From NCBI GenBank assembly GCA_964016885.1, contig CAXHJY010001605.1, positions 1 through 64,000 on the forward strand: 64,000 bases of DNA, written 5' to 3'. A program made the position numbers and the translations under genes. The notes below the pieces were generated by a model that worked only from the letters and a program-made list of their open reading frames with translations, was not told the origin of the DNA and ran no database searches. Positions 29,042 through 29,928 of the stretch are shown in pieces (position 1 is the first letter of the stretch; each line of letters begins with the position of its first letter). The stretch is from Eledone cirrhosa. Its lineage: Eukaryota.

Positions 29042-29797
29042 GAGTAGGACCCCGACGGCTGAGTTCAAGCCGTTTCGACGGCTAATTCTGGACGCGAGTA
29101 GGACCCCGACGGCTGAGTTCAAGCCGTTTCGACGGCTAATTCTGGACTCGAGTAGGACCCCGACGGCTGAGTTCAAGCCGTTTCGACGGCTAATTCTGGA
29201 CTCGAGTAGGACCCAGACGGCTGAGTTCAAGCCGTTTCGACGGCTAATTCTGGACTCGAGTAGGACCCCGACGGCTGAGTTCAAGCCGTTTCGACGGCTA
29301 ATTCTGGACTCGAGTAGAACCCCGACGGCTGAGTTCAAGCCGTTTCGACGGCTAATTCTGGACTCGAGTAGGACCCCGACAGCTGAGTTCAAGCCGTTTC
29401 GACGGCTAATTCTGGACTCGAGTAGGACCCCGACAGCTGAGTTCAAGCCGTTTCGACATCTAATTCTGGACTCGAGTAGGACCCCGACAGCTGAGTTCAA
29501 GCGGTTTCGACGGCTAATTCTGGACTCGAGTAGGACCCCGACGGCTGAGCTCAAGCCGTTTCGACGGCTAATTCTGGACTCGAGTAGGACCCCGACGGCT
29601 GAGTTCAAGCCGTTTCGACGTCTAATTCTGGACTCGAGTAGGACCCCGACGGCTGAGTTCAAGCCGTTTCGACGGCTAATTCTGGACTCGAGTAGGACCC
29701 CGACGGCTGAGCTCAAGCCATTTCGACGGCTAATTCTGGACTTGAGTAGGACCCCGACAGCTGAGCTCAAGCCGTTTCGACGGCTAATTCTGGACTC
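29042..29797 (-). repeat. 54-bp minisatellite, 14 copies, each the 3' half of a hammerhead (family D)
   Basis: Minus-strand unit: GAGTCCAGAATTAGCCGTC-GAAA-CGGCT(TGAACTC)AGCCG-TC^-GGGGTCCTACTC; 756 bp = 14 x 54. Confidence 0.9.
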
Positions 29798-29928
29798 AGT
29801 CCAGAATTAGCCGTCGAAACGGCTTGAGCTCAGCCATCGGGGTCCTACTCGTTCCTATTACCCACTCTACTACCCTAAGTATTGAGTACTTTGGTGCGTT
29901 ATGGTCCATCTGGTTCCTTACCACATTT
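29798..29928 (+). mobile_element. Family D arm (inverted relative to the array) with terminus
   Basis: GAAA-CGGCT..AGCC..GGGGTCC then TATTGAGTACTT; homologous to 36130-36362 and 53066-53248. Confidence 0.8.

Follow-up and report, generated by a model that had tools for sequence, protein, structure and literature searches.

Minisatellites derived from transposons consist of a piece of a dispersed repeat that has been amplified in tandem, with variants common to several units. The locus described here joins such an array to features of Penelope-like elements (PLEs). The feature list of the Hydra clade used in this work comes from Craig et al. 2021 (PMC8557442), according to which a size under 3 kb is a tendency of this clade and not a rule. 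Inverted PLE junctions can be palindromic (Arkhipova 2013, PMC3846280), and two internal start sites of the RT define the PLE tail (Frangieh 2024, PMC11167929). The U3-A8 covariation of the hammerhead core has already been described for PLE hammerheads (Cervera and de la Pena 2014, PMC4209133). Single changes at position 3 or 8 (C3G and G8C, the C3.A8 combination not being among them) abolished cleavage in a PLE hammerhead, and insertion in vitro did not need cleavage (both PMC11167929). Finally, the published definition of a retrozyme requires two or more successive units that all contain a complete hammerhead (bioRxiv 10.64898/2026.07.22.740005).

The window, a stretch of 64,000 nucleotides from Eledone cirrhosa, contains an array of half-hammerheads situated in a minisatellite-rich part of an unplaced contig of 156,935 bp. 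TRF placed it at 29041-29797, with a period of 54 bp, 14.0 copies, 96% matches and a score of 1402, and a unit-by-unit split agreed in giving 14 units on the minus strand (Table 1). Each unit carries, in this order, the 3' strand of stem II, GAAA, a stem III of 6 bp, the GUC site and the 3' strand of stem I (GGGGU), and the loop of stem III is normally palindromic. Tested alone as a hammerhead, the unit displayed GAAA, stem III, an NUH site and the 3' strand of stem I, while neither a CUGANGA or UUGANAA box nor a 5' strand of stem I or stem II was present. CTGANGA, TTGANAA and CTGANAA boxes were found on neither strand of 29030-29935, and the 5' half of the family from which the units derive, hereafter family D, was found nowhere within the window. 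The first-pass annotation had described the minus-strand 54-bp unit as the substrate half of a hammerhead with a GUC site, repeated 14 times, followed by an inverted copy with a tail and devoid of the CUGANGA half. TRF and the unit split bore out this arrangement, the search for boxes on both strands agreed with the missing half, and the genome supplied the matching 5' halves. The annotation had also rightly taken the long repeat ORFs for by-products: frames of 281 aa (+) and 265 aa (-), measured stop to stop, are expected because the unit is stop-free and its length is a multiple of 3. Folded singly, array units gave stem III probabilities of 0.88 and 0.52, with an alternative hairpin in competition.

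Unit 5 of the array is identical to the matching stretch of a long parent copy (L139). We infer that the CCTAT end of the terminal unit marks the first RT start site. The G at the fold-back centre is possibly cap-derived, and a bias towards G at the base before the hotspot A was also seen elsewhere in the genome. The inverted copy stops about 9 nt before the usual family end and has a G at unit position 31, against the A of the array. Three other copies in the window had been attributed to family D and said to lack the CUGANGA half; this holds for those at 36130 and 53066, but the copy at 28801, which also retains 3' halves only, shows about 75% identity to family D and belongs to a diverged sister family, whose full hammerheads are found at four loci (L062, L065, L069 and L074).

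Table 1. Array, flanking features and related copies in the window (positions counted from its first nucleotide).
Feature	Positions	Strand	Basis
Fold-back of a diverged sister pLTR family, 3' halves only	28801..29014		
(TA)n target, left flank	29014..29036		
CCTAT, last bases of the terminal unit and short 3' end of the family, merging into (TA)n	29034..29040	-	
14 head-to-tail units of 54 bp, 5'-truncated pLTR fragments of a Penelope-like element	29041..29796	-	TRF, unit split
Centre of the head-to-head fold-back, one base that reads G on the minus strand and immediately precedes the hotspot A	29797..29797		
Inverted 5'-truncated pLTR copy with a tail of ~80 nt (long 3' end)	29798..29929	+	
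(TA)n target, right flank	29929..29946		
Independent family D fold-back in (TA)n, without 5' half	36130..36351		
Independent family D fold-back in (TA)n, without 5' half	53064..53248		

Elsewhere in the window, eight complete minimal type I hammerhead motifs were noted, at 30147 (+), 30516 (-), 30680 (+), 3325/3465, 7925/8089 and 52093. They have a CTGATGA or CTGAGGA core and a palindromic loop III and lie in AT-rich elements, several of them fold-backs, which are probably the pLTRs of further PLE families. A SINE piece and 21/62-bp minisatellites in which TTTAGGG-like motifs occur lie within a threefold segmental repeat with a period of about 2.2 kb (21489-27350), and the contig that carries this repeat may be subtelomeric. 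A tRNA-like Rfam match at gathering score (6062-6119, minus strand) is probably the head of a tRNA-derived SINE.

Searching the 3.0-Gb genome with the inverted copy, a query that favours fold-back matches, returned near-identical elements, most of which were fold-backs arranged head to head and embedded in (TA)n. In the region upstream of the full hammerhead stand an ORF with an RT and, C-terminally, a GIY-YIG-type domain and a 3' UTR of about 1.1 kb. The fetched loci included perfect head-to-tail tandems with a period of 3,531 bp and near-identical frames of 784 aa, which points to very recent activity. Such perfect tandems of the full 3,531-bp element with intact ORFs were seen at C1:437198500-437218300 (L135, L136) and at L137 and L138. 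A protein search of the genome (141 of 58,338 candidates scored) found many in open frames of 770-819 aa, and the parent protein, P0001, has 2,216 homologs among 8,000 candidates scored. P0001 displays RWR at 36, DKT at 116 and YRDD, with no GxK[FY]; its C-terminal part harbors CNCPDRSIC (CxCx5C) at 571, VIY..YIG at 590, CNLC (CxxC) at 669 and CKH (CxH) at 697. The DKT motif is kept in 113 of 120 P0001 homologs among those listed. Pfam and PDB searches with the parent ORF gave no match, the GIY-YIG-type domain being called by motif.

These features identify family D as the pseudo-LTR (pLTR) of a Penelope-like retroelement that is autonomous and carries Hydra-clade motifs. Insertion into (TA)n and a hammerhead in the pLTR are both features of this clade, from whose usual size, "generally under 3 kb", the 3,531-bp unit departs. 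The Neptune clade, our first guess for the parent, was dropped once the Hydra-specific motifs matched. The parent family is a PLE of high copy number whose ORFs are intact and which appears to have been active recently. In the openly accessible literature we found no prior description of this family, of half-hammerhead arrays or of C3.A8 cores; Repbase/Dfam, subscription papers or the supplements of PMC8557442 may list the family. In the passages covered of an annotation of octopus repeats (PMC13282606), Penelope-like families are mentioned and the word "hammerhead" does not occur.

A genome search that allowed a long stem II gave 16 matches, of which nine belonged to family D, four to the sister family and three were unrelated. 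The nine family D copies carry ACCCYCTGAGGA together with a complementary stem I and have a C3-G8 core, and it is because genomic copies carry this matching 5' half that the array unit can be called half a hammerhead. The stem II region of the full ribozyme measures about 55 nt. The expectation that a genome-wide search would recover full copies with the canonical box was therefore correct for these nine, but most full copies read UUGANAA or CUGANAA. Exact 24-mers of the 5' half occur genome-wide 4,121 times with U3 (UUGANAA) and 1,453 times with C3 (mostly the mismatched CUGANAA), the canonical CUGANGA core being rare in family D. A8 was present in all of the first 100 listed U3 matches and all of the first 100 listed C3 matches. 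Among U3 copies, position 7 is G, U, A or C, fitting a free position. In the listed C3 copies it is G in 95 of 100, and a shifted register in which C3 pairs with G7 is possible.

Two full parent copies, L135 and L139, were folded by MFE: the youngest, L135, adopted the type I hammerhead and L139 another fold. In 18 hand-picked copies, the named hammerhead structure had 88% of cells paired and a double-sided change in stem II; the free consensus of RNAalifold chose a competing hairpin over stem III, which was not recovered. Rfam hammerhead models gave no match at E<=10 for positions 1600-1900 of L135 and none in the window; the Rfam matches obtained were hairpin-driven miRNA ones below the gathering score.

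A tree of 52 copies was built with positions 3 and 8 masked, after 11 of 63 rows had been dropped (three outgroup rows and eight with long branches or suspected misalignment). The C3.A8 subfamilies fall between two U3-A8 groups, and a single U3-A8 clade was rejected (p-AU 1e-55). Rooting by the sister family is unreliable owing to its long branch, which leaves the root unsure. From this placement, pair 3-8 was either lost and regained or gained twice, although recombination between subfamilies could confound this picture. In the long copies sampled, the marker of the array's subfamily, CCTACTCG, mostly accompanies C3.A8. As successive subfamilies carried the C3.A8 core, cleavage seems dispensable for a time.

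Two other candidates for the family's 5' half were rejected. In 42 matches a canonical CUGANGA stands no more than 33 nt from GAAA, and the 30 inspected were fold-back junctions or chimeras with the hammerheads of other elements, the family's own half lying about 55 nt upstream. A type II (circularly permuted) hammerhead with its core downstream was discarded because the tail has no core box. At seven loci (L031, L032, L034, L040, L046, L047 and L056), family D halves are fused just 3' of the CTGANGA box of another element, which suggests template switches between different PLE RNAs; some of these fused halves could form chimeric ribozymes.

Halves greatly outnumber full copies: the 3' half has 53,159 exact genome matches against 5,574 for the 5' half, so that only about 10% of family D arms retain the 5' half and about 90% are halves. 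We examined 39 loci with 52 arms, chosen consecutively on contig C1 from the list of 3'-half matches. In 46 arms the first base lies within stem II, 5-22 nt upstream of GTCGAAAC. The 3' ends of the 52 arms, counted from the same motif, fall at +43 to +45 (27 arms) or +122 to +125 (22 arms), that is, at one of two sites in 49 of the 52. These two fixed ends match the two RT starts and the tail described in PMC11167929.

Concerning the 5' boundary, the base before AGTCCAG was G in 66, C in 21 and A in 13 of the first 100 of 3,863 matches, scored by eye at non-T junctions. Microhomology with the inverted arm accounts for the G at five of 21 G junctions inspected but not at the other 16, a few of which are ambiguous. 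The extra G suggests that transcription begins at the A of AGTCCAG, which lies within stem II, 231 nt before the ATG, and that the transcript is capped. This A sits in an initiator-like context. A stall of the RT in stem II with untemplated addition of C is an alternative that would yield the same G bias. On the capped-transcript reading, the stop of about 90% of arms in stem II, often with a cap-like G, suggests that the ribozyme is divided by the start site.

Our preferred explanation, which we hold to be highly probable, is that the array is a 5'-truncated pLTR fragment of a Hydra-type PLE that was inserted into (TA)n in a single inverted/partial-tandem event and then multiplied in place, without a function of its own. 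First, transcripts would start at the A of AGTCCAG in stem II, leaving only the back half of the ribozyme at the 5' end. Secondly, the RT would start 43 or 123 nt past GTCGAAAC, primed from both nicked ends of the (TA)n target, and produce tiny cDNAs of 58 or 138 nt joined head to head. Thirdly, a template switch of the RT, from the 5' end of the RNA back into the pLTR, would create the first head-to-tail junction. Later turnover at the DNA level, by slippage or unequal exchange, would then bring the array to 14 units.

Short direct duplications of the 3' half gave 86 matches, 77 of them outside the window, and 30 loci were inspected. Many of the duplications begin anew at the truncation hotspot and lie with the inverted arm on one side and the terminal copy on the other; some have no fold-back at all. 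Such duplications elsewhere support RT template switching for the first junction. The G of that junction is also templated, so that RT and DNA origins fit it alike.

The variants among units bear on the subsequent growth. A31 is present in 11 of the 14 units and is missing from the inverted arm and from units 1, 2 and 5; it was found in 1 of the 100 first-listed 3'-half matches of the family. Units 2-4 recur as units 5-7, and T38 is common to units 6-8. The variant matrix therefore contains the features of minisatellite turnover, shared derived variants and higher-order blocks, and these shared variants and the repeated trimer make growth to 14 units look DNA-level. They also weigh against telomerase-like reiteration, in which the PLE RT would have gone through 14 rounds of copying on the 54-nt 5' end of one RNA during a single insertion. 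Every unit does begin at the 5' hotspot with a G before it, the array is bounded by the inverted arm and the CCTAT end, which is precisely the place of RT-made partial tandems, and the RTs of PLEs form the sister group of telomerase RT (PMC8557442). However, copying one RNA would not put the derived A31 into as many as 11 of the 14 units and yet leave it out of the inverted arm and of units 1, 2 and 5, the repeat of a three-unit block would stay unexplained, and arrays of more than three units are rare, the one other having 10 units with TA tracts and recurring variants; we therefore consider reiteration very unlikely. This second array of family D halves lies at C3:141871124-141871900 (L161-L165), with a TA tract of varying length in each unit and a recurring variant.

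Amplification in place is not peculiar to the ribozyme either. Units of the window arrays at 23151, 37220, 40466, 57235 and 58301 match dispersed repeats in 4-58 fetched loci, and at least four other minisatellites of the window are pieces of dispersed repeats; the ribozyme hairpin is therefore not needed for amplification. The earlier proposal that repeated slippage at this hairpin built the array finds no support, since the 5' boundary of the unit follows the family-wide truncation hotspot and minisatellites of the window arise without a ribozyme.

The same variants argue against an artefact of assembly or of long reads at the fold-back hairpin. The exact array junction is unique in the assembly, all nine of its matches falling in the window, and neither a shorter allele nor a paralog of the locus was found there. 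This uniqueness and the small unplaced contig would be compatible with an artefact, fold-backs are hard to assemble and no read has been demonstrated across a junction. Nevertheless, variants are hierarchical among the units and include CpG-type transitions, and sequences were placed in the interior bins of the array both from run X1, as contigs of low depth, and from run X16, as reads of another sample, which is suggestive only. An artefact appears most improbable to us.

The first-pass annotation had further proposed that a transcript of the array would act as a multivalent substrate or decoy for trans-cleavage by intact family D RNAs. In the form weighed here, it would be cut in trans by the intact ribozymes of the family, or would titrate these or the PLE protein. 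In silico, 13 of 14 isolated units were predicted to co-fold with a U3-A8 hammerhead, forming stems I and III in trans with GUC in the core and gaining 9.7-16.5 kcal/mol, and dimeric folding through a palindromic loop III is a known mode of PLE hammerheads (PMC4209133). Nonetheless, some 47,000 dispersed halves would be equal substrates, to which the array adds 14, and A31 breaks the palindrome of loop III, leaving a predicted gain of about 10 instead of about 16 kcal/mol. The best complex in a three-unit context is not the cleavage form, stem III probabilities across the whole array range from 0 to 0.56 per unit, the array RNA being predicted to misfold, and no promoter or transcript of the array is known. 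We regard a decoy role as very unlikely. No support was found for a special status of the half-ribozyme state or of the array, or for selection of either as a decoy: about 90% of arms are halves, other transposon pieces in the window form minisatellites that contain no ribozyme, and the spreading A31 variant weakens the predicted trans complex; the array is likely a by-product and not a ribozyme decoy.

The position of the putative start site raises another way in which the halves might be used. Every mRNA would carry a substrate half at its 5' end and a whole ribozyme at its 3' end, and the 3' ribozyme might cut both the 5' half, through loop III exchange, and itself, giving an exact unit-length ligatable RNA, a scheme that we judge rather unlikely. 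Were it true, unit-length RNA would explain the perfect 3,531-bp tandems, the ~47,000 halves would be fossils of uncut capped 5' ends, arrays such as the present one would be real trans substrates, and the C3.A8 subfamilies would constitute a natural experiment on the need of cleavage for transposition.

The array itself is of little weight. The parent family carries more: its start site likely divides the ribozyme, whole subfamilies bear a mismatch in the core, and it makes the role of hammerheads in Penelope elements testable.

Compared with Hydra-clade PLEs (Craig et al. 2021, PMC8557442), the parent likewise has a single ORF with an RT and, C-terminally, a GIY-YIG-type domain, the RW(K/R), DKT, CxCx5C linker, CxxC and CxH motifs without GxKF, a comparison made by motifs, as well as a pLTR hammerhead and (TA)n targets. 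It differs in its length of 3.5 kb instead of under 3 kb, its 3' UTR of about 1.1 kb, its very high copy number and a U3-A8 or C3.A8 core that is not canonical. As in the PLE insertions described in Arkhipova 2013 (PMC3846280) and Frangieh 2024 (PMC11167929), family D shows an inverted 5'-truncated copy, a palindromic junction, partial tandems, an optional tail set by two RT starts and an AT-rich target. Its tail is about 80 nt long against 30-40 nt, about 90% of its copies have their 5' truncation in one zone within stem II, and one partial tandem reached 14 units. With the PLE hammerheads, including the U3-A8 ribozyme of Schistosoma Cercyon, treated in Cervera and de la Pena 2014 (PMC4209133), family D shares the type I fold, G10.1-C11.1, a palindromic loop III and the U3-A8 covariation, while it departs from them by a stem II region of ~55 nt, a 6-bp stem III and a C3.A8 mismatch in whole subfamilies. 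Like the non-LTR retrozymes and hammerhead satellites covered in bioRxiv 10.64898/2026.07.22.740005, the array is a tandem repeat from a PLE pLTR. We rejected its classification as a non-LTR retrozyme: its units have no catalytic 5' box, which would preclude self-cleavage and circularisation, and thus fall outside the published definition. Set against transposon-derived minisatellites in general, the array is unusual only in the origin of its unit, half a ribozyme.
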